Source: Clostridia bacterium
Lineage (GTDB): Bacteria > Bacillota > Clostridia > Christensenellales > Aristaeellaceae
Assembly: GCA_045599485.1 (NCBI GenBank)
Contig: JAZRWA010000020.1
Location: 1-15,404 of the forward strand
Reading direction: 5' to 3'
Length of the DNA: 15,404 nt
The notes below the pieces were generated by a model. The model was not told the DNA's origin and did no database searches. It was given only the letters and a program-made list of their open reading frames with translations. The position numbers and the translations under genes were made by a program. Shown here piece after piece: positions 2,682-15,404 of this stretch. Each line of letters begins with the position of its first letter. The first letter of the stretch is position 1.

Positions 2682-2746
2682 GCAGGGGAACCACGCTTTC
2701 CGAAGCCGGAAAGCATGGTTCCCCTGCACCCCTCCGAGAAAGGGCA
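2682..2746 (+). repeat. Type-1 structured repeat, copy A1 (46-nt hairpin plus conserved tail)
   Basis: Hairpin GCAGGGGAACCACGCTTTCCG-AAGC-CGGAAAGCATGGTTCCCCTGC (2682-2727) followed by tail ACCCCTCCGAGAAAGGGCA. Near-identical copy at 8375-8439. Starts 7 nt after the prmC stop. Confidence 0.9.
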
Positions 2747-2763
2747 GATTCATTTCATTTTCA

Positions 2764-2838
2764 GGGGGAGAGGTACGCTTTTCGAAGCCGAAAAGCATAC
2801 CTCTCCCCCTGTGACCCCCTCTCGGAGAAAAGGCAGAC
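2764..2838 (+). repeat. Type-1 structured repeat, copy B1 (variant stem)
   Basis: Hairpin GGGGGAGAGGTACGCTTTTCGAAGCCGAAAAGCATACCTCTCCCCC (2764-2809) is identical to 11184-11229. Tail TGTGACCCCCTCTCGGAGAAAAGGCAGAC. It shares the central ACGCTTT..AAAGCAT core with the A copies. Confidence 0.9.
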
Positions 2839-2937
2839 TTTAGCATAACATCATAACACTCTTACTTCGGTGTCAGATGCTTTCTTCAAAGCAAAAAACG
2901 TATTGCATGCATATCCAGTAAAGGATTGGTGAAAAAA

Positions 2938-3171
2938 GTGAGCAAGATAATTGAAGCTGACATTTTATCAGAAGGCAGAAAGAGAATAAAAATTACACTA
3001 ATAAATGATGAAGTGATTTATGGTGTATCAATGGGAATTATTCCTGCTGTTGATAACGAAGGAGAATAGCTTGATTATGATGTGCTTGTTTTTGATGCGT
3101 ATTCTCCGAATTCATATTTCAAACTGACAGATGAAATGATCAAAAGTATTGAACAAGTGAATAGTATCTAA
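2938..3171 (+). CDS. Small hypothetical protein (about 77 codons) in a low-GC island, with an in-frame TAG at 3067-3069
   Basis: GTG 2938 (alternatives TTG 2926 or GTG 2929), with AAGGA at 2921-2925. Translation: VSKIIEADILSEGRKRIKITLINDEVIYGVSMGIIPAVDNEGE-TAG-LDYDVLVFDAYSPNSYFKLTDEMIKSIEQVNSI-TAA. The frame stays open for 33 more codons after the TAG in AT-rich DNA, and a strong terminator follows. No family recognised. Confidence 0.35.
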
Positions 3172-3198
3172 CATATAGCGTTTTTGTTTATGAAAAAG

Positions 3199-3223
3199 GC
3201 ACTGATCACAATCAGTGCTTTTT
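3199..3223. terminator. Rho-independent terminator, bidirectional in appearance
   Basis: GCACTGAT (3199-3206), loop CACA, ATCAGTGC (3211-3218), then TTTTT (3219-3223). AAAAA precedes it at 3193-3197. It sits 28 nt after the small-ORF stop. Confidence 0.6.
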
Positions 3224-3274
3224 ATCAAGAGTAACTGTTCAATATAGCAGTAACGGTATTCATCAGTAAAATAA

Positions 3275-3326
3275 CACCCTTGTCCTGATGTCAGAAACCT
3301 TTCATCAGGGCAAGGGTGCATTTTTT
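3275..3326. repeat. Type-2 hairpin repeat (ATAACACCCTTG... family), terminator-like
   Basis: CACCCTTGTCCTGATG (3275-3290) pairs with CATCAGGGCAAGGGTG (3303-3318) with one T:G pair, followed by CATTTTTT. Related copies at 11277-11316, 13363-13405 and 14705-14747. Confidence 0.75.
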
Positions 3327-3338
3327 CATTTAAAGAAC

Positions 3339-3396
3339 CGCTTTTTCGCGGAGGGCTTGGGAACCGCCCTTTTGGACTTCAAAAAGGGGGTTCCCA
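3339..3396 (-). repeat. Type-1 structured repeat, copy C1 (inverted orientation)
   Basis: Inverted tail CGCTTTTTCGCGGAGGGC (3339-3356), then hairpin TTGGGAACCGCCCTTTTGG-ACTT-CAAAAAGGGGGTTCCCA (3357-3396). Very similar to 14769-14828. It lies 52 nt downstream of the minus-strand hydrolase stop. Confidence 0.85.
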
Positions 3397-3448
3397 TATC
3401 CTTTTCCGTCTCGTCTTCAGGGCGGGGGATCTCGCCCTGGTTCAGCGA

Positions 3449-4750
3449 TTACTGGGCGGCGCTGTGGCGGATGGTCATGCCGCGGGGAGCGGTATAGACG
3501 GTCTCAAAGCCCTTCCAGTAGTTGACACCGTAGATGCAGTTGGCGCCGACGGGCTCCAGCACATCCAGGTATTCCATCTTTTCGGTCTCGCCCTTCAGCT
3601 TGGCATCCAGGAAAGCGGTGATGAAGTGATCGGTATAGCCGTTCACATTCCACAGATCCCAGATAACGTCGCCCCAGCGGCGCATGTCAGCCAGGGAGCG
3701 ATCCTGCACATCGACGGGCACGGGGTTGGTGATGATGCTGTGATCCAGCATATCGAAGGTCACAAAGTAACGATCGGTATTGACGGTCTTGGCATACATA
3801 TCCAGCACCTGGGCATGGGGCACGATGGTGTCGTAGGTGCCCTGCATCCACAGGGTGGGGGTGTCGATGTTCACAAAGCTGGACTCGTCAAACATGGGCT
3901 GACCCCAGGGGGCGCACAGCACGGCAGCGCTCAGGCGCTTGTCGCCGACGTAGTCTTCAGCTTCGAGCAGCAGGTCTTCATAAGCGGCGATGCGGGCATC
4001 GGCAGCGATGGCGTCCTTGCTCAGCTTGGCACCCAGGGTGCGCAGCAGGCCGTAACCGCCGAAGCTGTAGCCGATCATACCGACGCATTCAGGCTTGAGC
4101 ATGCCGGCCAGGAAGCCTTCGGCATTCAGGCCCTCGAGGGCGTCGATGGTGTGGCGCTGGTCCAGCGTACGGTTCATGATGGCGCTGATCCAGGCGATGT
4201 CGGGGTTGAAGGCGGACACGCCGGTATCGGTGTGCTCCAGAGCCAGAACCACATAGCCCTTGGTGGCCAGGTTCTCGCCCAGGTGGCTCATCAGGTAGCG
4301 GCTGCCGGGATAGCCGTGGGTCACGATGACCACGGGATAGGGACCATCAGCCAGATAGGGATCGGCGTCACGCATGGCGCGGCCCACGAAATCAAAGGCT
4401 TCCAGGTCGTTGGTGTCGCTGCGGCCCATGTGATCGGTGTAGGTGGACAGCTGCACGGCGCCTTCGGCGACCACAGCGGGATACCACACTTCCACGGTCA
4501 GCACGCGGTCATGCAGGGGACGGGGATTTTCGGCGGTAATGGCGGCCAGGTCGACCTGGTCGGGGGTCACGATCTCAATGGTGCGCACGCCGATGGCGTA
4601 CTCGCCGCGCTTGGCCAGCGCGGGGGAGGAGGCGATCGGGTCACCGATCACAGAGCCGACGGGATAGCCTTCTTCGTACACCAGCGTATCGGCGACGGCC
4701 GCGGAGAACAGCATCACAAGGGCGAACAGGATAGCAAGAATTCGCTTCAT
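3449..4750 (-). CDS. Secreted alpha/beta hydrolase (dienelactone hydrolase / PAF-acetylhydrolase-like esterase)
   Basis: 433-aa ORF. N-terminal signal peptide MKRILAILFALVMLFSAAVA, nucleophile elbow GYSFGG (GxSxG), VTHGYPG oxyanion-type region, and later QGTYDT (Asp) and LDHS (His) candidates. RBS GAAGGAGAA on the minus strand (4762-4770). Stop TAA 3449-3451. Confidence 0.85.
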   Translation of the reverse strand: MKRILAILFALVMLFSAAVADTLVYEEGYPVGSVIGDPIASSPALAKRGEYAIGVRTIEIVTPDQVDLAAITAENPRPLHDRVLTVEVWYPAVVAEGAVQLSTYTDHMGRSDTNDLEAFDFVGRAMRDADPYLADGPYPVVIVTHGYPGSRYLMSHLGENLATKGYVVLALEHTDTGVSAFNPDIAWISAIMNRTLDQRHTIDALEGLNAEGFLAGMLKPECVGMIGYSFGGYGLLRTLGAKLSKDAIAADARIAAYEDLLLEAEDYVGDKRLSAAVLCAPWGQPMFDESSFVNIDTPTLWMQGTYDTIVPHAQVLDMYAKTVNTDRYFVTFDMLDHSIITNPVPVDVQDRSLADMRRWGDVIWDLWNVNGYTDHFITAFLDAKLKGETEKMEYLDVLEPVGANCIYGVNYWKGFETVYTAPRGMTIRHSAAQ

Positions 4751-4983
4751 GGTTTTTTGTTTTCTCCTTCTTCATTTTAATGGAACGGGGGAAGAGTATC
4801 AACAAGCCTCCTCCCGCGGCAGCAGCCGACGGTTTCAAGGCGGTTTTTGCGGAAATGCGCACAGAATCGATCCCCTTTCCATGCTGTGCATTCCGCGGTC
4901 TTCCGTCTGTTTTTCCGTTTCTTTCTCTGCCGGGGGGCTGCGTGTTTCTGTTTCTGCCGGACAGGCGCGTCCGGTTTTGCCGA

Positions 4984-5012: not shown

Positions 5013-5135
5013 GAAAATACTCACGCTGCGTTCATTTACACCATCGGGTCATTTGCTTTCCATATTATACAATTTTAAATGTTTTGTGTCAACAATATTC
5101 TTTACATTTCAAATCTTTTTGTAAGGAGTTCTCCC

Positions 5136-6578
5136 ATGAAAAAGATATTGTCCTTCCTCATCGCCCTGCTGCTGCTTTTTTCCTGCGCCGGCGCGGATTC
5201 CCTCATCTACGGCAGCGGCACCTGGGAATGCCCGTCCTGCGGCAGCCTCAACTGCGGTCAGCACTGCGGTGCCTGCGGCGCCCCCATCCCGCTGTGGCAG
5301 TGCCCTGCCTGCAGCGGCTTCATGACCTCGCCCTACTGCGTCAACTGCGGCATGGAAAAATACTATTCCCTCGGCACCGCCGCGCTGGCGGTGAGCGATT
5401 TTGAAGCCGCCATCGGTTATCTGGAATCGTCCCGCAGCCCCGAAGCCTGGGACGCGCTGGCCGGGGCGTGGGTTCAGGCGGCCCGAAGCTTCGAATATGA
5501 CCACGACTATGAGAATGCCCTTTATTGCTATCAGAATGCCGAAGTCTACGGCGCGGATGTTTCCGACAAAGTCTCCCACTGCAGCTACCAGCTGGCCACC
5601 GTGCTGTACCGGGAAGGCGATTATCCGGCCGCCATGGAGCTGCTGGATTCCCTCGGTGATTACAGGGACAGTGCCGACGCTGCCCGTGATTGCCGCTATC
5701 AGCAGGCCCTTTTATAGGAAGAAAACGGCCGGTTCGCCGAGGCGGCCGCCCTTTACGCGCAGATTCCGGGGTACAAGGACAGCGACAGCCGCTATCGTAC
5801 GCTCACCTGCGCGCTGGCGTCCGAATGCTTTGAAAACGGTCAGTACGACGAAGCCGCCGCGCTCTACGGCGAATTTGAATACGATGATGACTGCATGTCC
5901 CAGCGCACGGAGGCGCTTCGCCGCAGCGACCTGGTCAAACGCTTCACCCTCCAATGCTGCCTCCGCGTGGCAGATGCCGACGGCGCAATTGCCTACCGAT
6001 ACGGCTCCGCCACCGCGTATCTTGATGACCTGAACGAAGGCGATTCCCTGCAGCTGCTCCTGGCGCTGTCGGGGGCAGCTTCCGCTTCCGCGGATGTGCA
6101 GCTGCGCTGGAACGGCGGCGAATTACAGACCGCGGCGCTCTCCGCGTCTGAATTCGAACAGGCCGAATTTGTTGTCTCCCTCCCCGCCGAGGCGGGCACC
6201 TTCCCCTTTGAGGTCTTTGTCGGCGGTGTTAAGTTCAAGGAAGATACCGCCGAGATCCTGCCCTCGGGCGGTCATCGTCCCAGGGCGGTGAGATCGGAAA
6301 GTACCCGCACCGCTTCCGCCTCCGCCAATGGCTTTATGGGCCCCGTGTATGTCAAAATCACCGTAACTGACAGCAACACCCTCAGCTCCATCGTCATCGG
6401 CGATCACCGCTTCGAGGAGATCCTCGGCAGCAAGGTGCTGGAGGAGAGTTATCAGCAGCAGTTCATCGGCAAATCGCTGCCGCTTGGCCCGAATGATGTG
6501 GACGCCTGCGCCGGCGCGACCATCACCTCCGCCGCCGTGGTGGAGGCCGTCAACGCCGCCTTTGCCTCGCTTCCGTAA
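5136..6578 (+). CDS. Putative lipoprotein with double zinc ribbon, TPR-like repeats and a C-terminal FMN-binding (FMN_bind) domain. The frame contains an in-frame TAG at 5715-5717.
   Basis: RBS TAAGGAG (5122-5128), then ATG 5136. Signal and lipobox-like MKKILSFLIALLLLFSCAG, then CPSCG..CGACG..CPAC..CVNCG zinc ribbons. Repeats of the type YREGDYPAAMELL / ENGRFAEAAALY / ENGQYDEAAALY lie on both sides of the TAG. Track ORFs 5079-5717 and 5895-6578 are in the same frame, with no other stop between them. The C-terminus GFMGPVYVKITV...VDACAGATITSAAVVEAVNAA matches the FMN_bind flavinylation-type motif. Stop TAA. Confidence 0.7.
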
Positions 6579-6596
6579 AACCGATACCCTTCCCTC

Positions 6597-6633
6597 GGGG
6601 GACCGTTCCGTACGGTTCCCCGTTTCTTTTTTT
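6597..6633 (+). terminator. Rho-independent terminator
   Basis: GGGGACCGT..loop..ACGGTTCCCC (one bulge) followed by GTTTCTTTTTTT. It starts 19 nt after the 6578 stop. Confidence 0.6.
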
Positions 6634-6737
6634 GTCGTTTGCAAAAAACGTTTGCCCCGCGGCCGCCCTCCCGCAAACGTTGGTAAAGGCGTGCTGCTTC
6701 ATAAGTCGTTGCAAAAATGTTTATCTTTTGTTAGAAA

Positions 6738-7048
6738 TGTGGATAAAATCCCCTGTGGATAACTTTTGTGGATAACTTCGGTGGATAAATGGAGTTATCC
6801 ACAGGGTTTTTGCACATTGAACACGGGAAAATCAACAAAATCAAGGGTTTTTGCACCAAATTCGGTGGATAACTATGTGGATAATGTGGATAACCTCCTT
6901 TTTCTTCCCTTGCGCATATCTTGTATGTAAGCCGCGGGAGCACCACAAGACCATCATTTCTGGGCAAAATATCCCCTTTTTTTTGAGGTTATCCACCGAG
7001 TCACGGTGGATAAAAATTGGAAAAGTGGATTTTTTCGCTTGTGGATAA
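6738..7048. promoter_or_regulatory. DnaA-box cluster (oriC-like or DnaA-titration/regulatory locus)
   Basis: Perfect TTATCCACA or its complement at 6738-6746, 6754-6762, 6767-6775, 6795-6803 (opposite orientation), 6876-6884, 6885-6893 and 7040-7048. One-mismatch TTATCCACC at 6780-6788, 6864-6872, 6989-6997 and 7005-7013. A weak box at 7024-7032. The cluster lies in a 650-bp non-coding, lower-GC gap. Confidence 0.85.
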
Positions 7049-7147
7049 CCTTTCGCCGCGGGAGCGAACAGCGGCGGAATAAGAGGCGATGTCTTTCAAA
7101 AAGCGTCTTTGATGTCATAAAACCGTAACAATTAAAGATCCGAATCA

Positions 7148-7156
7148 TGGTATACT
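7148..7156 (+). promoter_or_regulatory. Possible extended -10 promoter element for the 7229 gene
   Basis: TGgTATACT (7148-7156). There is no convincing -35. Confidence 0.3.
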
Positions 7157-7228
7157 GATACAGGCGGAAAAAAGCGGCTCACGCCGTCCCTCCGCCGCAA
7201 AAAGCGAACGATCCGAAAGGAAAACGAT

Positions 7229-8350
7229 ATGATCGACAGCAGAAAACACGTATGTCTGGCCACCGCCTCGGCGGGGCTGGAGGGCGTGGTCAAGCGGGAG
7301 CTTCTCTCCCTGGGCTTTGAAGACGCCAAGGCGGAGCTGGGCGCCGTGCGCTTCACCGCCGATTACGCGGGCATGATGAAGGCCTGTCTGTGGCTGGCGT
7401 GTGCCGACCGCGTACTCATTGTGGTCAGGGAAGGCCACGCCGAGACCTTTGAAGACCTTTTTCAGCTGGTATTGAGGGCGCCGTGGAGCGATTATCTGCC
7501 CAAGGATGCCGCCATCCCCGTGTCGGGGCGCTGCTCGCGCAGCAAGCTGATGTCCGTGCGCGACTGCCAGGCCATCACCAAAAAGGCCATTGTGGAGCAC
7601 ATGAAGCGCGCCTTCCACACGCAGCTTTTGCCCGAAACGGGCCCGCGCTTTCAGGTCGATGTGGCCCTGCACGGCGACACGGCGCGCTTGACGCTGGATG
7701 CCAGCGGCGAGGCGCTCAACCGCCGCGGCTACCGCACCTGGAACGGCGAAGCGCCCCTGCGCGAAACGCTGGCCGCCGCCATGGCGCGCCTGGCCTTCTG
7801 GGACAAGCGTCAGCCCCTGCACGATCCCTGCTGCGGCACGGGCACGCTGCTCATTGAAGCGGCCTTTTACGCCGCGCGCCGCGCGCCGGGGCTGAACCGC
7901 TCCTTTGACCTGGAGCGCTGGCCGTATGCCGACGCGCGCGAGCTTTCCCGCCTGCGGGAGGAGGCCGCCGCCGCCTTTGACCCGTCCCTCATTCCCCCCA
8001 TCACGGGCAGCGACCTCGATCCCAACGCTTTGGAGCTGTGCCACCGCCACATCCGTCAGGCGGGGCTGGAATCCTACATCCGCGTTTACCCTGCCGACCT
8101 GCGGCAGCTGACGGTTGAGGGGCCTTCGCCGTGCTTTATTGCCAACCCGCCCTACGGCGAGCGCCTTGGCGACAAAAAGCAATGCGAAGAATTGTACCGC
8201 GCCTTTAAGCCCCTCATGCTGCGCCACCCCGGCTGCAGCCTGAACCTGATCACCTCCCACCCCGGCTTTGAGCGCGTTGCCGGCCTGCGCAGCCGCAAAA
8301 AGACGCGCATGTACAACGGCCGCCTCGAGTGCGATTACATGAGGTTTTGA
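7229..8350 (+). CDS. THUMP-domain class I SAM-dependent RNA methyltransferase (COG0116, RlmL/YpsC-like)
   Basis: 373 aa. The N-terminus ATASAGLEGVVKRELLSLGF is typical of the family. SAM motif DPCCGTGTLLIEAA and catalytic NPPYGERLG. RBS GAAAGGA (7215-7221). Stop TGA. Confidence 0.85.
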   Translation: MIDSRKHVCLATASAGLEGVVKRELLSLGFEDAKAELGAVRFTADYAGMMKACLWLACADRVLIVVREGHAETFEDLFQLVLRAPWSDYLPKDAAIPVSGRCSRSKLMSVRDCQAITKKAIVEHMKRAFHTQLLPETGPRFQVDVALHGDTARLTLDASGEALNRRGYRTWNGEAPLRETLAAAMARLAFWDKRQPLHDPCCGTGTLLIEAAFYAARRAPGLNRSFDLERWPYADARELSRLREEAAAAFDPSLIPPITGSDLDPNALELCHRHIRQAGLESYIRVYPADLRQLTVEGPSPCFIANPPYGERLGDKKQCEELYRAFKPLMLRHPGCSLNLITSHPGFERVAGLRSRKKTRMYNGRLECDYMRF

Positions 8351-8374
8351 CGAAGGATTTTGACGAAAGGTTTT

Positions 8375-8439
8375 GCAGGGGAACCACGCTTTCCGAAGCC
8401 GGAAAGCATGGTTCCCCTGCACCCCTCCGAGAAAGGGCA
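8375..8439 (+). repeat. Type-1 structured repeat, copy A2
   Basis: Matches 2682-2746 exactly by eye across hairpin and tail. It starts 24 nt after the methyltransferase stop. A degenerate half-copy with the tail CCGAGAAATGGAAAACTTTATTGCACAGCAC follows at about 8507-8560. Confidence 0.9.
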
Positions 8440-8586: not shown

Positions 8587-8723
8587 CCCGCCGCTTTTCC
8601 CTTGTTCATGTGCCGTTTTTTACCAACACTGCCATTGACAGAAAGCCTCTTTTTGACATACAATAAGTGTATAATTCAGGAAAATTTCCGCCATATCGGC
8701 GGGTAAAAGAAAGGAAATCAAAC

Positions 8724-9893
8724 ATGCTTCAGAAAAAGTGTGTAGCCATGCTGTTGGCCGGCGGTCAGGGCAGCCGTTTGGGCGTGCTGACCAAGCATAT
8801 GGCCAAGCCCGCCGTTCCCTTCGGCGGCAAATACAGGATCATTGACTTCCCGCTGTCCAACTGCACCAACAGCGGCATTGACACCGTGGGTGTTCTGACG
8901 CAGTATCGTCCTCTGGAGCTGAATGCCTACATCGGCAACGGCGCCCCCTGGGATCTGGACGTCAACAACGGCGGCGTGTACGTGCTGCCCCCCTATCAGA
9001 CCGGCGCCACCGGCGAATGGTACAGCGGCACCGCCAACGCCATTTACCAGAACCTGGCCTTTATTGCCCAGTACAATCCCGAGCATGTGCTCATCCTGTC
9101 CGGTGACCACATCTACAAGATGGATTACAACGACATGCTGCGCCACCACATCGATACCGATGCCGACGTGACCATTGCCGTCCGTCAGGTGCCGTGGGAG
9201 GATGCCAGCCGTTTCGGCCTGATGAACACCGATGCCTCCGGCCGCATCATTGAGTTTGAAGAGAAGCCCAAGAACCCCAAGAGCAACAACGCCTCCATGG
9301 GTGTGTACATCTTCAAGTGGGAAAAGCTCCGCGATTATCTGATCGCCGACGAAGCCAACCCCAACAGCTCCAACGACTTTGGCAAAAACATCATCCCCAA
9401 CATGCTCAATGACGGCTGCATGATGAGCGCCTACAACTTCAACGATTACTGGAAGGACGTCGGCACCATCGACTCCCTGTGGGAGTCCAACATGGACCTG
9501 CTGACCGATCCCCTGCCCATTGACCTGTATGACCGCAAGTGGCGCGTGTATGCCCGCAACTTCGGCTCTCTGCCCCAGTACATCGCCGACGGCGCTGTCG
9601 TCAAGGATGCCCTGGTGACCGAAGGCTGCGAAGTGTACGGCACCGTGGAGCACAGCGTGCTGTCCACCGACGTCAAGGTGGAAGAAGGCGCTGTCGTCAA
9701 GGACAGCGTGATCCTGCCCGGCGCCACCATCAAAAAGGGCGCTGTGGTCATCCGCGCCATCGTGGCGGAAAAGGCCGTCATCGGTGAAAACGCCGTGGTC
9801 GGCGCCGAAGGCGGCGAGATCGCCGTGGTCGGCAATAATACCACTATTCCCGAGGGCGGCACCGTCGCTCCCGGCGAACAGGTTGGCGAGTAA
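8724..9893 (+). CDS. glgC: Glucose-1-phosphate adenylyltransferase (ADP-glucose pyrophosphorylase catalytic subunit)
   Basis: [40 protein letters not shown] and a C-terminal left-handed beta-helix repeat region. ATG 8724 with GAAAGGAAA upstream; the track ORF begins earlier at 8667. Stop TAA. Confidence 0.92.
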
Positions 9894-9908: not shown

Positions 9909-11030
9909 ATGAACAATCTGATGGGTCTGATCTTCACCGGTGAAAACCTCGGTCATCTGGGCACCCTGACCGCCATGCGCGATGTGGCGGCTGTGCCTGT
10001 GGCCTCCCGTTACCGCATTGTGGACTTTATCATCTCCTCCATGGTCAACAGCGGCGCCCGCAACGTGGGCCTGATCGTGCAGCAGAACTACCACAGCCTG
10101 ATGGATCATCTGGGCACCGGCAAGGAATGGGACCTGCACGGCAAGCGCCGCAGCCTGACCATTCTGCCCCCCTACACCATGCCCGGCAGCATCGGCATGT
10201 ACAACGGCCTGCTGGACAGCATCAAGAGCAACATCCACTTCCTGCGCCGCTGCACCGAGCGCTATGTGGTGGTCACCGAAGCCAACATGCTCTACACCGC
10301 GCGCTTTGACGAAATGCTCGCCAAGCACGTGGAAACGAACGCTGACATCACCGTGATGTACAACAGCGATCCCGCCCTCATCCGCAGCAGCTGGGGCCGC
10401 TACATCAATGTGGCGGTGGACGGCCGTGTCACCGATCTGGAGATCAACCCCGTGCTGCCCAACAACTCCAAGAGCATGATGGGTGCCTTCATCATCCGCC
10501 GTGAGCTGCTCATTGAGCTGGTGGACCGCGCCATTGCCCGCGGCCAGTATCACTTCACCCGTGAGGTGCTCATCGACGCCATCCACAACGGCACCTACAA
10601 GGTGTACGGCTGGGAAAACACCAACAAGGTGTGGCGCATCGAAAACGTCAACGATTATTACAACGCCTCCATGGATCTGCTGTGCAGCGATTCCAAGGCG
10701 TCCCTGTTCAAGCCCGAGTGGCCCATCCTCACCCCTGTGCATGACGAAATGTCCTCCCGTCTGTGCCCCGGCTCCCAGGTCAAAAACAGCCTGATCGCCG
10801 ATGGCTGCAAGATCGAGGGCACCGTTGAAAACTGCGTCATCTTCCGCGGTGTGCAGATCAAAAAGGGTGCTGTGGTGCGCAACTGCGTCATCATGCAGGA
10901 CAGCATGATCATGGAAAACGCGCATCTGGAGGGCGTCATCCTGGACAAGGAGTGCATCGTGCGCGAGGAAGTGGTCATGATCTCTCCCAAGTCCTGCCCG
11001 AACGTGCTGCCCAAGGGCGCTGTCATCTAA
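9909..11030 (+). CDS. glgD: Glucose-1-phosphate adenylyltransferase subunit GlgD (non-catalytic)
   Basis: GlgC paralogue lacking the GGxGxRL signature (IFTGENLGHLGTLT), with RYRIVDF present. AGGAGG at 9894-9899. Lies directly downstream of glgC, as in Firmicutes glgCD pairs. Confidence 0.9.
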   Translation: MNNLMGLIFTGENLGHLGTLTAMRDVAAVPVASRYRIVDFIISSMVNSGARNVGLIVQQNYHSLMDHLGTGKEWDLHGKRRSLTILPPYTMPGSIGMYNGLLDSIKSNIHFLRRCTERYVVVTEANMLYTARFDEMLAKHVETNADITVMYNSDPALIRSSWGRYINVAVDGRVTDLEINPVLPNNSKSMMGAFIIRRELLIELVDRAIARGQYHFTREVLIDAIHNGTYKVYGWENTNKVWRIENVNDYYNASMDLLCSDSKASLFKPEWPILTPVHDEMSSRLCPGSQVKNSLIADGCKIEGTVENCVIFRGVQIKKGAVVRNCVIMQDSMIMENAHLEGVILDKECIVREEVVMISPKSCPNVLPKGAVI

Positions 11031-11042
11031 ATAACATTTTTT

Positions 11043-11100
11043 GCAGGGGAACCACGCTTTCAGGGCCTGAAAGCATGGTTCCCCTGCACCCTTCCAGAAA
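11043..11100 (+). repeat. Type-1 structured repeat, copy A3
   Basis: GCAGGGGAACCACGCTTTCAGGGCCTGAAAGCATGGTTCCCCTGC (11043-11087) plus a degenerate tail. It starts 12 nt after the glgD stop. Confidence 0.85.
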
Positions 11101-11116
11101 TAATAATCATCATTAA

Positions 11117-11160
11117 GGGGGAAAGGTACGCTTTTCAAAGCCGAAAAGCATGCCCGCCCC
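11117..11160 (+). repeat. Type-1 structured repeat, degenerate copy
   Basis: GGGGGAAAGGTACGCTTTTCAAAGCCGAAAAGCATGCCCGCCCC retains the central core, but the outer stem is decayed. Confidence 0.6.
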
Positions 11161-11183
11161 AAACCTCGATAATAAAGTAATAA

Positions 11184-11258
11184 GGGGGAGAGGTACGCTT
11201 TTCGAAGCCGAAAAGCATACCTCTCCCCCTTTGACCCCCTCACGGAGAAAAGGCGGTC
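11184..11258 (+). repeat. Type-1 structured repeat, copy B2
   Basis: The 46-nt hairpin is identical to 2764-2809. Tail TTTGACCCCCTCACGGAGAAAAGGCGGTC. Confidence 0.9.
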
Positions 11259-11276
11259 TATAACATACATCATAAC

Positions 11277-11362: not shown

Positions 11363-11383
11363 GTAACGCACAGGATATCATAC

Positions 11384-11449
11384 TGCCCTTTCTCGGAGGG
11401 GATTAAAAGGGGAACCATGCTTTCCGGCTTCGGAAAGCGTGGTTCCCCT
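11384..11449 (-). repeat. Type-1 structured repeat, inverted copy
   Basis: Inverted tail TGCCCTTTCTCGGAGGGG (11384-11401), then hairpin AGGGGAACCATGCTTTCCGGCTTCGGAAAGCGTGGTTCCCCT (11408-11449). It lies 16 nt downstream of the minus-strand glgA stop. Confidence 0.9.
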
Positions 11450-11465: not shown

Positions 11466-13154
11466 TTACTCCGCGTCGGCTTTCTTCGCGGCAGGCTTGC
11501 GGGTGCGCTTGGGCTTGGCAGGCGCTTCTTCCCCCTCCGCAGCGGGCTTCTTCGCAGCAGGCTTGCGGGTACGCTTGGGCTTCGCGGGCGCTTCCTCGGC
11601 CACGGCTTCGATCACGACCTCTTCCACCACGGGCGTTACGATCTCCTCGTCCGCGGGCGCTTCGGCCACCGCAGGCACGGCCGCTTCCGCCGCGTCCTCC
11701 GCCACGGGGGCGGGGGCGCTGGGCAGCATGCTGGCGTACAGGGACTCATACACCTCAGCGGAGTGCGTCCAGCTGTAATCGCCCTCCATGCCGCGCACCA
11801 TCAGGTTCTGCCACACATCGCTCTTCTCGCGGAAGTAGCGCACCGCACGGCGGATGGTAAACAGCATGTCATGCGCGTTGTAGTTGAAGAAGGTAAAGCC
11901 GTTGCCGGCGTTGTTGTAATGGTTGTAGCTCAGCACGGTATCACGCAGGCCGCCGGTCTCGCGCACGATGGGCACGCAGCCATAGCGCAGGGCGATCATC
12001 TGGGTGAGGCCGCAGGGCTCAAAGCGGCTGGGCATCAGCATCATGTCGGCACCGGCATAAATGCGGTGCGCCAGACCGTTATCCATCTGGAAGCGGGCGG
12101 CGACACGGCCGGGATACTGCTGCTCCGCCCAGCTGAAGAGGTTGACATAGCGGCTTTCGCCCATGCCCAGCACCACCAGCTGCACGTTTTCTTCCATGAT
12201 CTGGCCGATCACGTGATCCACCAGGTCCAGGCCCTTCTGGCTGGACAGGCGGGTGACCATGCCGATGACGGGCACGGAGGGATCGACGTTGAGCCCCAGC
12301 TCCTGCTGCAGGCTTTCCTTGCAGGCGGCACGGCCGCTCATATCGGCAAGGCTGTAATTGAAGGGGATCAGCGCGTCATCCGCGGGGTTCCAGGCGTTGA
12401 TGTCGATGCCGTTGAGCACGCCGGACAGGTTGGCACGGCGGGAACGGAGCAGGCCATCCATGCGCTCACCGTAATAGGTGGTCTGGATCTCCTCGGCATA
12501 GCTGGGGGACACGGTGGTGATCTCATCGGAATACACCAGCGCGGCCTTCATAAAGTTGGCGCAGCCGAAGCTGGCCAGCTTGTCCTCGGTGAAGTCGCCC
12601 TCGTTCAGGCTCAGCACATCGCGCAGCTGATCGATGCCGAACACGCCCTGATACTGCAGGTTGTGGATGGTGTACACCGTGCGGATGCCCTGATAGAAAT
12701 CCACACCGCTGTACTGGATCTTGAGCAGCGCGGGGATCATGCCAGCCTGCCAGTCATGGGCGTGCAGAATGTCGGGCTTGAAGCCCAGCAGGCGCATGCC
12801 CTCCAGCACAGCACGGTCAAAGAAGGCATAACGCTCGTACTCGTCGCCGCCCGCGCCGTACACATAATCACGCTTGAAGTAGTATTCGTTGTCGATAAAG
12901 TACCACTTGACGCCCTCGGCCTCGATCAGCTCGATGCCGCAGTACTGCTTTCTCCAGCCCAGAGTGACTTCAAAATTCATCACATGGGTCATGGCATCCT
13001 TGTACTTGTCGGGGATCATGCCGTACTTGGGGATCATGACCGCCACATCATTGCCGCGCTTGGCCAGCACGGGCGCCAGAGCGCCCACCACGTCCGCCAG
13101 ACCGCCGGTCTTGATGAAGGGCACGCATTCGCTCGCCGCAAACAAAATCTTCAT
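11466..13154 (-). CDS. glgA: Glycogen synthase (ADP-glucose type) with an unusual ~84-aa low-complexity C-terminal extension
   Basis: MKILFAASECVPFIKTGGLADV (KTGGL motif), then typical GT5 features. ATG at 13152-13154 is preceded by AAGGAG on the minus strand. The track ORF extends to 13343 through repeat DNA, and I reject that extension. Stop TAA 11466-11468. Confidence 0.92.
   Translation of the reverse strand: MKILFAASECVPFIKTGGLADVVGALAPVLAKRGNDVAVMIPKYGMIPDKYKDAMTHVMNFEVTLGWRKQYCGIELIEAEGVKWYFIDNEYYFKRDYVYGAGGDEYERYAFFDRAVLEGMRLLGFKPDILHAHDWQAGMIPALLKIQYSGVDFYQGIRTVYTIHNLQYQGVFGIDQLRDVLSLNEGDFTEDKLASFGCANFMKAALVYSDEITTVSPSYAEEIQTTYYGERMDGLLRSRRANLSGVLNGIDINAWNPADDALIPFNYSLADMSGRAACKESLQQELGLNVDPSVPVIGMVTRLSSQKGLDLVDHVIGQIMEENVQLVVLGMGESRYVNLFSWAEQQYPGRVAARFQMDNGLAHRIYAGADMMLMPSRFEPCGLTQMIALRYGCVPIVRETGGLRDTVLSYNHYNNAGNGFTFFNYNAHDMLFTIRRAVRYFREKSDVWQNLMVRGMEGDYSWTHSAEVYESLYASMLPSAPAPVAEDAAEAAVPAVAEAPADEEIVTPVVEEVVIEAVAEEAPAKPKRTRKPAAKKPAAEGEEAPAKPKRTRKPAAKKADAE
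11481..11598 (-). repeat. 66-nt-period tandem duplication inside the glgA 3' end
   Basis: 11481-11532 and 11547-11598 are near-identical. Each encodes EEAPAKPKRTRKPAAKK. Confidence 0.85.
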
Positions 13155-13224
13155 ATGGGTAATTCTCCTTAAAATAGAATGAATTATGATATTACAACAT
13201 CGGTTTTCACACAAAACCAGCTTC

Positions 13225-13253
13225 ATAATACCACATTTTGCCGCTTTACGCAA
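13225..13253 (-). promoter_or_regulatory. Candidate glgA promoter
   Basis: The minus strand reads TTGCGT (13253-13248), 17-nt spacer, TGgTATTAT with -10 at 13230-13225. Confidence 0.45.
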
Positions 13254-13279
13254 GGGAACGGCAGCATTGGATGTTGATC

Positions 13280-13486
13280 GGGGAGGGTACGCTTTTCGTG
13301 CCGAAAAGCATGCCCTCCCCCAACCCCTCCTGAGAAAAGGCAATCATGATCATACAGCATAACACCCCTGCTCCGATGACAGATTTCTTCATCCAAAGCA
13401 AGGGTACAATTATTTGATGAAATGATTGCTTTTTCTCGGAAGGTTTGGAAACCCTGCTTTTTGGCTTCAAAAAGCGTGGTTTCCAA
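13280..13486. repeat. Composite MITE-like element: type-1 hairpin + tail, central type-2 hairpin, inverted tail + type-1 hairpin
   Basis: Left hairpin 13280-13320, tail CAACCCCTCCTGAGAAAAGGCA 13321-13342. CATAACACCCC and the type-2 hairpin at 13363-13405. Inverted tail TGCTTTTTCTCGGAAGGT at 13428-13445, right hairpin TTGGAAACC...GGTTTCCAA at 13445-13486. No ORF. Confidence 0.75.
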
Positions 13487-13499
13487 GAACCCCCGTCCG

Positions 13500-14618
13500 T
13501 TATTCTAATAGCGGCTCGAGCACCGTGTTCATCACGTCCATGCCGCGCTGAGAAAGAAGAAGATGGGAACGTGTCAGCAAAGCACGCCCGTCCGCGATGG
13601 CGGGGGCCAGGGCGGCGCCGTAGCGTGTCATCAGATCCACACCGTAGCGCTGTTTAAATTCTGCAAGCGCAATGCCCTGCGTCAGCCGCATCCCCAGCAT
13701 CACGGCCTCAAACAGCATTTCGTCCGGGCCGATGTGCTCTGTCTCGCCCGCCTCGCCGCCAAGGTACGCGTCCAGCGTTTGCGGGTTGGTGCGGCGGTCA
13801 TTCTGCCACAGGGAGGCCGCGGCGCAGCCGAAGCCCAGGTAATCCTCGCGTTTCCAGCAGTTCACGTTGTGCCGGCATTCCTCGCCCGGCACGGCAAAAT
13901 TGCTGATCTCATACTGCAAAAGCCCATTTTCACGGAAGATACTGCGGCACAGCTCATACTGCGCGCGGTCCTCTTCATCGCCCGGCAGGGTCAGCCGTCC
14001 GTGTGTCAGATCATCATACAGCGGCGTGCCCTCCTACGGGATCAGCGCGTAGCAGCTGATGTGCTTTACGCCCAGCCCCATCACAAAGCGCGCGGTCTGT
14101 TCGGCGTCCCGCATCGTCATGCCGGGGAGTGCCAGCATCATATCGGCATTGAGCCGCTCAATGCCCGCCGTACGCACGATGGCCGCGGCGTTGACCGCGT
14201 CCTATACCGTATGGATGCGCCCGATGCTTTTGAGCAGCCGGTCGCTTGCGCTCTGCACGCCCATCGATACACGGTTGACGCCGCCTTCAAAAAGCGCGGC
14301 GGCTTTTTCCGCCGTGATGGTACCGGGGTTCATTTCGCTGGTCCATTCGGTGTTTTCCGCCAGAGGAAAGCTGTCCCGAACCGCCTGACACAGCCTGTAC
14401 AGCAGTTCTTCCGGCAGCAGCGTGGGCGTGCCTCCGCCAAAGAACACCGTGTCGGCCATGGGATGCCCCAGCGCGTCCGACCGGCGGCGCATTTCCTCCG
14501 CCACCGCGTCCACATAGCGCTGCATATCGTTTTCCCGCCCCGCCCAGCTGGCAAAGTCGCAGTAGCGGCACTTGCTTTTGCAAAACGGCACATGCACGTA
14601 GATTCCCAGATGCTTCAT
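13500..14618 (-). CDS. hemW: Radical SAM heme chaperone / oxygen-independent coproporphyrinogen-III oxidase-like protein (HemW/HemN family). The frame contains two in-frame TAG codons (14202-14204 and 14034-14036).
   Basis: MKHLGIYVHVPFCKSKCRYCDF (CxxxCxxC), FFGGGTP, NRVSMGVQS, GRIHTV-TAG-DAVNAAAIVRTAGIERLNADMMLALPG..., SCYALIP-TAG-EGTPLY..., YEISNFA...HNVNCW. Track ORFs 14202-14618 and 13500-13919 are in the same frame, and I translated the gap with no other stops. RBS GGAGGTG. Stop TAA 13500-13502. Confidence 0.8.
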
Positions 14619-14652
14619 GGCACACCTCCGAGGGGATTATAACACAGATTGT

Positions 14653-14828
14653 CAGGGGAAACCACGCTTTCCGAGAAAGGGCAGTTTTTTTCCTTTCTGC
14701 ATAACACCATTGCTCTGATGACGGGTTTAGATATCAGGGCAATGGTGCTGTTTTATTTAAATAATGATTGCTTTTTCGCGGAGGGCTTGGGAACCGCCCT
14801 TTTTGGCCGCAAAAAGGGTGGTTCCCAA
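14653..14828. repeat. Composite MITE-like element with an internally deleted left arm
   Basis: Collapsed type-1 arm CAGGGGAAACCACGCTTTCCGAGAAAGGGCAG (14653-14684). CATAACACC plus type-2 hairpin at 14705-14747. Inverted tail TGCTTTTTCGCGGAGGGC at 14769-14786. Hairpin TTGGGAACCGCCCTTTTTGGCCGCAAAAAGGGTGGTTCCCAA at 14787-14828. Confidence 0.75.
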
Positions 14829-14838
14829 CAATCCTTTC

Positions 14839-14867
14839 TTTACACATCGTCCCATCTGTGGTATGGT
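14839..14867 (+). promoter_or_regulatory. Candidate promoter for the 14898 gene
   Basis: TTTACA (14839-14844), 17-nt spacer, TGgTATGGT with -10 at 14862-14867. Confidence 0.45.
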
Positions 14868-14897
14868 AGAAAAAATACCGTAAAGGAGCGTAAAACC

Positions 14898-15404
14898 ATG
14901 AAAAAGCTGATTTCCCTGCTGCTGGCGGCGCTGATGCTGCTTTCCCTGTGCGCTTCCGCTTTTGCGGAGGAGCCCGTGCTGGCCTCCACCAAGTCCCTGA
15001 CCGCGCTGCTGGACAGCCAGAACCTCAACTACACCTGCTACGGTCTGGATGATGACGGCGATGACCACATTTCCATCGGCGTATCCAACGACGATCTGAA
15101 CCTCAAGTACACCATGGAGCTGTTCTTCAGCGATGACCTGGAGGCCGCTTATGTATACGTCTGGTACCTGATCAGCTACAGTGCCGAAAATCAGTCTGCT
15201 GTGACCGCCCTGTGCAACGAGATCAATTCCGCCTTCCGCTATGCCACCTTTGTCGCCGATGACCGTGACAACACCGTGACCGTCAAGAACGCCGCCTTCC
15301 TGCGCAGCGTGGACGATGCCGGCGCCATCGTGTTTGACATGATGACCACCATGGCCAGCGTGATCGATGAAGTGTATCCCTACCTGGCCGAATACGCCAA
15401 CTGA
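14898..15404 (+). CDS. Small secreted hypothetical protein (possibly YbjN-like fold; family call weak)
   Basis: RBS AAAGGAG (14882-14888), then ATG 14898. Signal peptide MKKLISLLLAALMLLSLCASAFA, high GC3 bias, and the gene ends at TGA 15402-15404. The upstream part of track ORF 14649-15404 is repeat DNA. Confidence 0.75.
   Translation: MKKLISLLLAALMLLSLCASAFAEEPVLASTKSLTALLDSQNLNYTCYGLDDDGDDHISIGVSNDDLNLKYTMELFFSDDLEAAYVYVWYLISYSAENQSAVTALCNEINSAFRYATFVADDRDNTVTVKNAAFLRSVDDAGAIVFDMMTTMASVIDEVYPYLAEYAN

Follow-up and report, generated by a model that had tools for sequence, protein, structure and literature searches.

We present an analysis of a dense cluster of DnaA boxes located at positions 6738-7048 of a 15,404-nucleotide stretch of DNA from a Clostridia bacterium (hereafter the window), and the cluster is probably a secondary, non-origin DnaA-box cluster (DBC) of the kind represented by the DBCs of Bacillus subtilis and by datA of Escherichia coli. 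Such a locus would sequester or otherwise modulate DnaA and might couple the transcription of the neighboring rlmL-like gene to replication status. The cluster is unlinked to dnaA, devoid of DnaA-trios, specific to its lineage, kept by selection and placed upstream of a putative promoter, so that the description of a DBC fits it point by point.

Most of the experimental work on non-origin DBCs comes from B. subtilis, E. coli and Streptomyces. The phenomenon is already established, and what the window locus adds is a clean footprint and a recent appearance at a breakpoint: in an uncultured lineage of strictly anaerobic gut (or rumen) Clostridia, a very strong cluster under purifying selection has recently appeared at, or been relocated to, a rearrangement junction. 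It is a clean natural example of the fast turnover of such loci, with the boxes themselves remaining fixed.

Composition of the DnaA-box cluster

Scanning the 15.4-kb window with TTATCCACA at no more than one mismatch yielded 14 boxes, against 1.9 +/- 1.4 in shuffled sequences, none of which (0 of 200) reached 14. Eleven of the 14 fall within 6738-7048, seven of them perfect (starts 6738, 6754, 6767, 6795, 6876, 6885 and 7040) and four with one mismatch (starts 6780, 6864, 6989 and 7005), which reproduces exactly the count and the coordinates given for these ~310 bp in the preliminary description. The background box rate of the rest of the window predicts ~0.06 boxes for a stretch of 311 bp, and the Poisson probability of at least 11 is ~1e-21, so the earlier wording of an origin-grade density was upheld. 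When read on the + strand, nine boxes have the sequence TGTGGATAA and two have TTATCCACA, and most carry the extended high-affinity form TGTGGATAAC. Box density in relatives reached a maximum of 5 per 400 bp (~1.6 Mb, 116 loci); hence the density of the cluster is not ordinary for the intergenic DNA of this group, and a comparable density in many intergenic regions, the circumstance that had been named as making the cluster unremarkable, was not seen.

A terminator and the putative promoter of the RlmL/K-like RNA methyltransferase gene bound the 600-bp intergenic region that contains the cluster. The boxes form three groups at the positions first proposed for them; the three internal repeats are likewise present where they had been placed. 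Conservation of the individual elements was read from a footprint alignment of the window with the sister-lineage contigs L083, L085 and L086 (alignment A1). The left edge of the intergenic region is set by the intrinsic terminator of the FMN-binding lipoprotein gene (6596-6632, + strand; stem CGGGGGACCGTTCCGTACGGTTCCCCG then TTTCTTTTTT), the stem of which is almost constant in the three contigs, with variation confined to the loop. An AT-rich patch at 6700-6737, directly left of a four-box array, is the sole candidate unwinding element.

Sub-cluster I (6738-6803, - strand) consists of four head-to-tail boxes (6738, 6754, 6767 and 6780; start-to-start spacing 16, 13 and 13 bp) and an inverted box at 6795-6803, which pairs with the 6780 box to make a palindrome. 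Its repeating unit, TGTGGATAACTTN, suggests local tandem amplification. The box columns of this sub-cluster are kept in the relatives in A1, with single-base changes in two boxes, namely at the last base of the 6795 box and at one base of the 6767 box in L086. To its right lie two copies of (A)GGGTTTTTGCAC (6808-6857, + strand) that contain the weak box-like sequences TTTTGCACA (6808-6816) and TTTTGCACC (6849-6857). As TTTTGCACA, contained in the first copy of the AGGGTTTTTGCAC repeat, is one mismatch away from TTATNCACA, the DnaA-box consensus of B. subtilis and Firmicutes (PMC4447404), this copy is probably a weak extra box rather than a separate motif. Only the second copy of AGGGTTTTTGCAC is conserved in the relatives in A1, and these also carry TTATCAACA just upstream of it.

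Sub-cluster II (6864-6893, - strand) is a head-to-tail run of three boxes (6864, 6876 and 6885), with no gap between the second and the third. It is invariant in A1, and the relatives have an inverted fourth box (TTATCCACG/A) immediately to its right. Sub-cluster III (6989-7048) is made up of an inverted pair, TTATCCACC-7 bp-GGTGGATAA (6989-7013), and of a single perfect box at 7040-7048; its boxes are invariant in A1, and the ~90 bp to their left are almost unalignable between the lineages. Two of the repeats confirmed in the window, GCCGCGGGAGC and GTCGTT(T)GCAAAAA, are only partly conserved in the same alignment. About 100 bp downstream of the last box lies a putative extended -10 element of the rlmL-like gene (7148-7156, + strand; TGGTATACT) within a block, 7108-7160, that hardly varies in A1. 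Because its -35 is weak, this element was missed by the consensus promoter scan; its candidate role as the promoter of the rlmL-like gene is read from the sequence itself and from the conservation of the block.

Conservation in the sister lineage and lineage restriction

Four contigs from other samples (L083-L086) encode an RlmL that belongs to the same 90%-identity protein cluster and carry the box cluster at the same place. Those with an intact cluster have 14-15 boxes (L084 is truncated inside it), and overall nucleotide identity is ~85%. Box columns in A1 are 98-99% identical to the window as compared with 62% for the other intergenic columns (60% inside the cluster), with Fisher p values of 1e-15 to 1e-16. 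Boxes that stay fixed while their spacers drift point to purifying selection on the boxes, and this footprint is the strongest evidence that they may be functional DnaA sites. Maintenance of the boxes by selection, as is looked for in a DBC, is therefore found here as a column identity of 99% vs 62%.

The sister lineage (L083, L085 and L086) is without two blocks of the window, 2746-4936 (a low-GC island and a hydrolase gene) and 5196-6523 (most of the TPR and FMN-binding genes), and retains the final ~55 bp of the FMN-binding gene, the terminator of that gene and the box cluster in full. The left flank of the cluster is therefore an indel hot spot, and the cluster itself is preserved.

Beyond these contigs the cluster is not encountered. 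The closest GTDB species has an RlmL identity of only 71%, and the cluster was found only in the same 90%-identity RlmL cluster (L083-L086). There are no boxes upstream of rlmL in L081 and L082 (RlmL 76% identical) or in L001 and L123-L126 (71-72%), and no cluster was found in 80 GTDB species-level loci around rlmL or in 36 metagenome loci around DUF1385-prmC. A deep positional homology with the prmC side, comparable to B. subtilis DBC[ywlC-ywlB], was considered and dropped, as 0 of the 36 DUF1385 loci have the cluster. The prmC-rlmL junction is specific to the lineage of the window. This lineage-only joining, together with the boxless relatives, indicates that the cluster is young and located at a rearrangement junction, yet strongly constrained.

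In three relatives with RlmL 71-72% identical, gyrB lies on the opposite strand upstream of rlmL (L123:2-1431; L124:3820-10001; L125:112-6396). In L123 it is directly beside rlmL, and in L124 and L125 gyrB is joined by gyrA, with two chromate-transporter genes between them and rlmL. Upstream of gyrB in L123-L125 there is no dnaA-dnaN-recF, which indicates that the classical dnaA-dnaN-recF-gyrBA block is already broken in the clade. This gyrB neighborhood is one hint of a possible oriC-proximal location of the cluster. Another is that in two complete clostridial genomes rlmL lies 3.5-5% of the genome length from coordinate 1, which may or may not mark dnaA.

The only other box-rich spot in the 1.6 Mb of relatives' DNA belongs to Mogibacterium timidum ATCC 33093 (L034:19096-19530), with 6 boxes at no more than one mismatch (2 perfect) in ~430 bp, ~8 kb downstream of rlmL and in a locus that gave no dnaA match. 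It may be another DBC.

Origin features and the weighing of readings

Among the features of an origin, a DnaA-box cluster is present (11 boxes with at most one mismatch in 311 bp). The conserved origin context of Firmicutes, rnpA-rpmH-dnaA-dnaN (PMC7561715), is absent at the cluster according to Pfam/NCBIfam annotation of all real ORFs and to tblastn of the window and sister contigs. A Pfam-validated DnaA query gave no match in the window or in ~126 related loci, and dnaA, dnaN and rpmH are missing from the 6.7 kb on the left of the cluster and from the 8.3 kb on its right. The initial remark that neither dnaA nor dnaN is nearby is therefore correct for the window, as judged by Pfam and NCBIfam annotation and by tblastn with a DnaA query. 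The position is not conserved among relatives either, the cluster being absent at RlmL identities of 76% or less and in 116 further loci.

The geometry between box and trio was taken from the E. coli R1/DUE arrangement, and it agrees with the C. difficile trio CTACTACTATTACTACTA. The rule for a basal unwinding system (BUS) calls for a correctly oriented box followed, after no more than 16 bp of spacer, by three or more DnaA-trios (3'-NAN-5', consensus GAT) (PMC8287927). Applied to the cluster, it gave one trivial match, inside neighboring boxes, where chance predicts 2-3 (17-23% per position). No ([CT]T[AT])>=4 run occurs in the window or in the cluster regions of the sister contigs, and three 3-unit T-runs have the wrong geometry or are not conserved. 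The search for DnaA-trios that the preliminary description had proposed thus ended with no trio and no BUS (box plus DnaA-trios) at the boxes.

Its companion proposal, an AT-rich unwinding element (DUE) next to a box, gave a mixed picture. The AT-richest 27-mer of the intergenic region starts at 6712-6714 with 81% AT against a 99th percentile of 74% in the window, the least stable 30-mers of the region are at 6712-6750, and the 27-mer (6712-6738) abuts the four-box array; however, the window has intergenic sites of lower stability elsewhere. The patch at 6700-6737 is AT-rich in the relatives too and holds one extra box, TGTTGATAA, and its trio-like triplets number only 2 in succession (AAA, GAT), below the BUS minimum of 3. 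The location of the 27-mer on the side where, in the E. coli-type geometry, a DnaA filament would extend is suggestive of an origin.

Genes on the + strand have a GC3 skew between -0.15 and -0.35 to the left of the cluster and likewise to its right, with no shift, over a stretch that at 15 kb is too short for this purpose. Since the skew follows the coding strand, the minus-strand glgA being negative on its own strand, it cannot show the direction of replication. The adjacent left genes (TPR protein and FMN-binding lipoprotein) and the DUF1385-prmC operon are transcribed toward the cluster, and gene orientation is mixed on both sides. Approximately 4 of 8 transcription units would be co-directional with replication under an origin model vs 5 of 8 without it, which is a weak argument.

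The nearest likeness is with B. subtilis. The window cluster shares with the DBCs of that organism the form of an intergenic array, unlinked to dnaA in a Firmicute host, with many boxes at or near the consensus, a location next to a promoter whose gene may be regulated by DnaA, a position that varies among related species, and an RNA-modification gene as neighbor. RNA-modification genes lie beside four of the six DBCs in B. subtilis, namely yydA (rlmH), thdF (trmE), ywlC (tsaC) and gcp (tsaD), and the window cluster probably has more perfect boxes than most of the six. The six non-origin DBCs of B. subtilis bind DnaA stably, and deletion of all six raises the ori/ter ratio 1.37-fold (PMC3245932, PMC4447404); DnaA is a transcription factor at sda, ywlC, yydA and trmE (PMC4447404, PMC3245932), and DBC positions differ between related species (PMC3245932). 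With six such loci in B. subtilis and a conserved origin context in Firmicutes, a dnaA-unlinked cluster is a priori far likelier to be a DBC. DnaA binding and an effect on initiation were demonstrated for the B. subtilis DBCs and are predicted for the window cluster.

E. coli datA is likewise a chromosomal cluster of high-affinity boxes outside oriC, and it restrains initiation as is proposed here; it differs in having ~5 boxes against 11 in the window cluster, and the resemblance is functional only. datA needs IHF to promote the hydrolysis of DnaA-ATP, and Firmicutes are not known to have IHF, SeqA or Hda. Deletion of datA leads to ~1.3-fold over-initiation (PMC3245932). The oriC-proximal DBCs of Streptomyces coelicolor and oriCII of Pseudomonas aeruginosa are reported to be further non-initiating clusters that regulate replication or adjacent operons (PMC3245932; PMC13438810); they belong to other phyla and box dialects and have no sequence relationship to the window cluster. 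Clostridial oriC1, the rpmH-dnaA intergenic region, has 9-19 boxes and lacks both a DnaA-trio and its own DUE (PMC7561715). It resembles the window cluster in its many boxes, the missing trio and the overlap with a promoter, but it stands by definition beside dnaA and works with oriC2 across that gene, whereas the window is without dnaA.

If the cluster acts as a DBC, domain IV of DnaA would bind 11-13 boxes, mostly of the R1/R4 type (TGTGGATAAC). The three closely packed sub-arrays would favor cooperative binding of neighboring DnaA molecules and may be bridged by looping, and the locus could in this way keep a substantial number of DnaA molecules from oriC, or alter their nucleotide state, so that replication initiation would be damped, an effect established for the B. 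subtilis DBCs and E. coli datA. The number of sites, and with it the capacity of the sink, would double at each fork passage. As the array ends ~100 bp upstream of the putative rlmL-like promoter, DnaA occupancy may also tune the transcription of that gene.

Should the cluster be a purely transcriptional operator, DnaA would only repress or activate the rlmL-like gene and tie rRNA/tRNA modification to the state of replication, leaving initiation essentially unaffected, and this we consider unlikely. It would agree with the location of the cluster directly upstream of the conserved putative extended -10 promoter of rlmL, with the prevalence of RNA-modification genes beside B. subtilis DBCs, and with the regulation by DnaA of genes beside several of those DBCs (PMC4447404, PMC3245932). 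However, an operator would need far fewer than 11-15 high-affinity boxes over 310 bp, a distance of ~100 bp separates the -10 element from the nearest box upstream of it, and the rlmL promoters of relatives (L001, L081, L123-L126) are boxless, which argues that control by DnaA is no intrinsic need of rlmL. A dnaA-uncoupled, trio-less chromosomal origin, or an orphaned functional half of a bipartite, oriC1-like origin, that was separated from dnaA-dnaN by a rearrangement in the lineage at the ancestral gyrB|rlmL boundary, and in which a DnaA oligomer opens 6700-6737, appears quite improbable. Box number and affinity are origin-grade, the boxes are under strong selection, the AT-rich 27-mer is on the appropriate side of the four-box array, the position is a rearrangement junction at which relatives differ upstream of rlmL (gyrB/gyrA in L123-L125), and clostridial oriC1 is likewise without trio or DUE (PMC7561715). 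Yet dnaA, dnaN and rpmH are missing over the distances given above, no DnaA-trio or BUS was found although ~85% of predicted origins have one, and the window has other intergenic spots at least as unstable as the candidate DUE. The TPR, FMN-binding lipoprotein and DUF1385-prmC transcription units moreover read toward the cluster, the skew is equally negative on both sides, and the site is without the cluster in every genus-level relative examined, in a phylum with an otherwise conserved origin context (PMC7561715).

Far less credible still is a chance or decaying repeat array with no present function, be it of slippage-amplified 13-bp units or the relic of a mobile-element origin. Its TGTGGATAACTTN units do resemble tandem amplification, the cluster seems young and lineage-restricted, and the flank is prone to indels, with two blocks of the window missing from the sister lineage; but boxes conserved at 99% against ~60% for the spacers, the 14-15 boxes kept in the sister contigs, the lack of a similar plasmid or phage record and the housekeeping chromosomal genes on either side are at odds with it, and such a non-functional reading is already disfavored by the footprint. 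The origin of a mobile replicon was rejected after blastn of 6600-7230 against plasmids and phages gave no match. What speaks against the DBC reading is that seven perfect boxes, and 14-15 boxes in the sister contigs, at least equal the endowment of many origins, and the 81%-AT 27-mer beside a head-to-tail array is suggestive in the same direction. Because gyrB(-gyrA), classic genes of the origin neighborhood, are divergent from rlmL in the 71-72% relatives, the cluster could be the remnant or a relocated part of an origin.

A true origin at this site would be an unusual, dnaA-unlinked and trio-less one for a Firmicute, and a rare relocation where rpmH-dnaA-dnaN is otherwise fixed. The locus also calls for caution with origin-prediction tools that use box density in fragmented MAGs. 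Among the roles put forward in the preliminary description, DnaA titration of the datA/DBC type, possibly with control of rlmL, is the one favored by the evidence, which goes against oriC in view of the missing dnaA and trio/BUS, of the unshifted though weakly informative skew and of the absence of the cluster in the nearest genus-level relatives.

Neighboring genes and repeat elements

Real genes were picked by GC3, Pfam and NCBIfam. To the left of the cluster these are the 3' end of addA (56-748, + strand), DUF1385 (804-1847, +), prmC (1844-2674, +), an alpha/beta hydrolase gene (3449-4750, -), a gene for a TPR protein (5079-5717, +) and the FMN-binding lipoprotein gene (5895-6578, +), with palindromic repeat elements from ~2680 and a low-GC island at 2840-3320 between prmC and the hydrolase gene. 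The hydrolase assignment, with a GC3 of 0.81 vs 0.62 for the overlapping + strand ORF, corrects the earlier placing of every left-hand gene on the + strand. To the right are the gene of the RlmL/RlmK-like, THUMP-domain class I SAM-dependent RNA methyltransferase (7229-8350, +; Pfam RlmL_1st, THUMP and UPF0020), glgC (8667-9893, +), glgD (9909-11030, +), the - strand genes glgA (11466-13343) and a broken hemW-like gene (13500-14618), and an ORF without assigned identity (14649-15404, +). The best NCBIfam match of the RlmL-like protein is the N-terminal (RlmL) half of RlmK/L (E value 8e-78), a match that falls short of the model's cut-off. Rfam gave no match in the window, and minus-strand ORFs across the cluster in sister contigs (186 and 228 aa) were set aside as gene-caller artefacts, since the window has only 78- and 64-aa fragments in their place.

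The rlmL-like gene is the only gene placed for regulation from the cluster. DnaA control had also been suggested for the downstream glgCD; direct control is unlikely, given that the interval between rlmL and glgC holds a palindromic repeat element and then a ~230-bp gap.

This element belongs to a family of palindromic, GC-rich repeats of 45-85 nt and at least 3 subtypes that occur in the intergenic DNA after nearly every gene (2681-2746, 2763-2847, 3333-3404, 8374-8439, 11041-11106, 11113-11267, 11374-11449, 13265-13325, 13421-13492 and 14763-14834). The copies at 2681-2746 and 8374-8439 (TGCAGGGGAACCACGCTTTCCGAAGCCGGAAAGCATGGTTCCCCTGCA...) are 100% identical. The repeats look like REP/MITE-type elements doubling as terminator hairpins, and they are present also in the sister contig L083. 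The low-GC island has 36-42% GC against a background of 58-64%, contains small ORFs only and is missing from L083; it may be a small insertion.

The FMN-binding lipoprotein, which has an RnfG-like domain, found no homologue but itself at E<=1e-10 among 5.8 billion proteins and is an orphan except for this C-terminal domain. GlgA has a C-terminal extension of ~85 aa past the glycogen synthase domains (11466-11720, - strand), which ends in two tandem basic 22-aa units (EEAPAKPKRTRKPAAKK...) corresponding to a 66-nt tandem repeat at 11469-11600. The HemN/HemW-like radical SAM gene (- strand) is split into at least 2 ORFs (HemN_C at 13500-13919 and Radical_SAM at 14202-14618), as a frameshifted pseudogene or by an assembly error. 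The AddA C-terminal region is similarly spread over successive ORFs at 56-475 and 476-748, each of which has a coding-like GC3; the former matches the C-terminal region of AddA and the latter weakly matches its PD-(D/E)XK nuclease domain. This split could be a frameshift or an artefact of stop/start calling.
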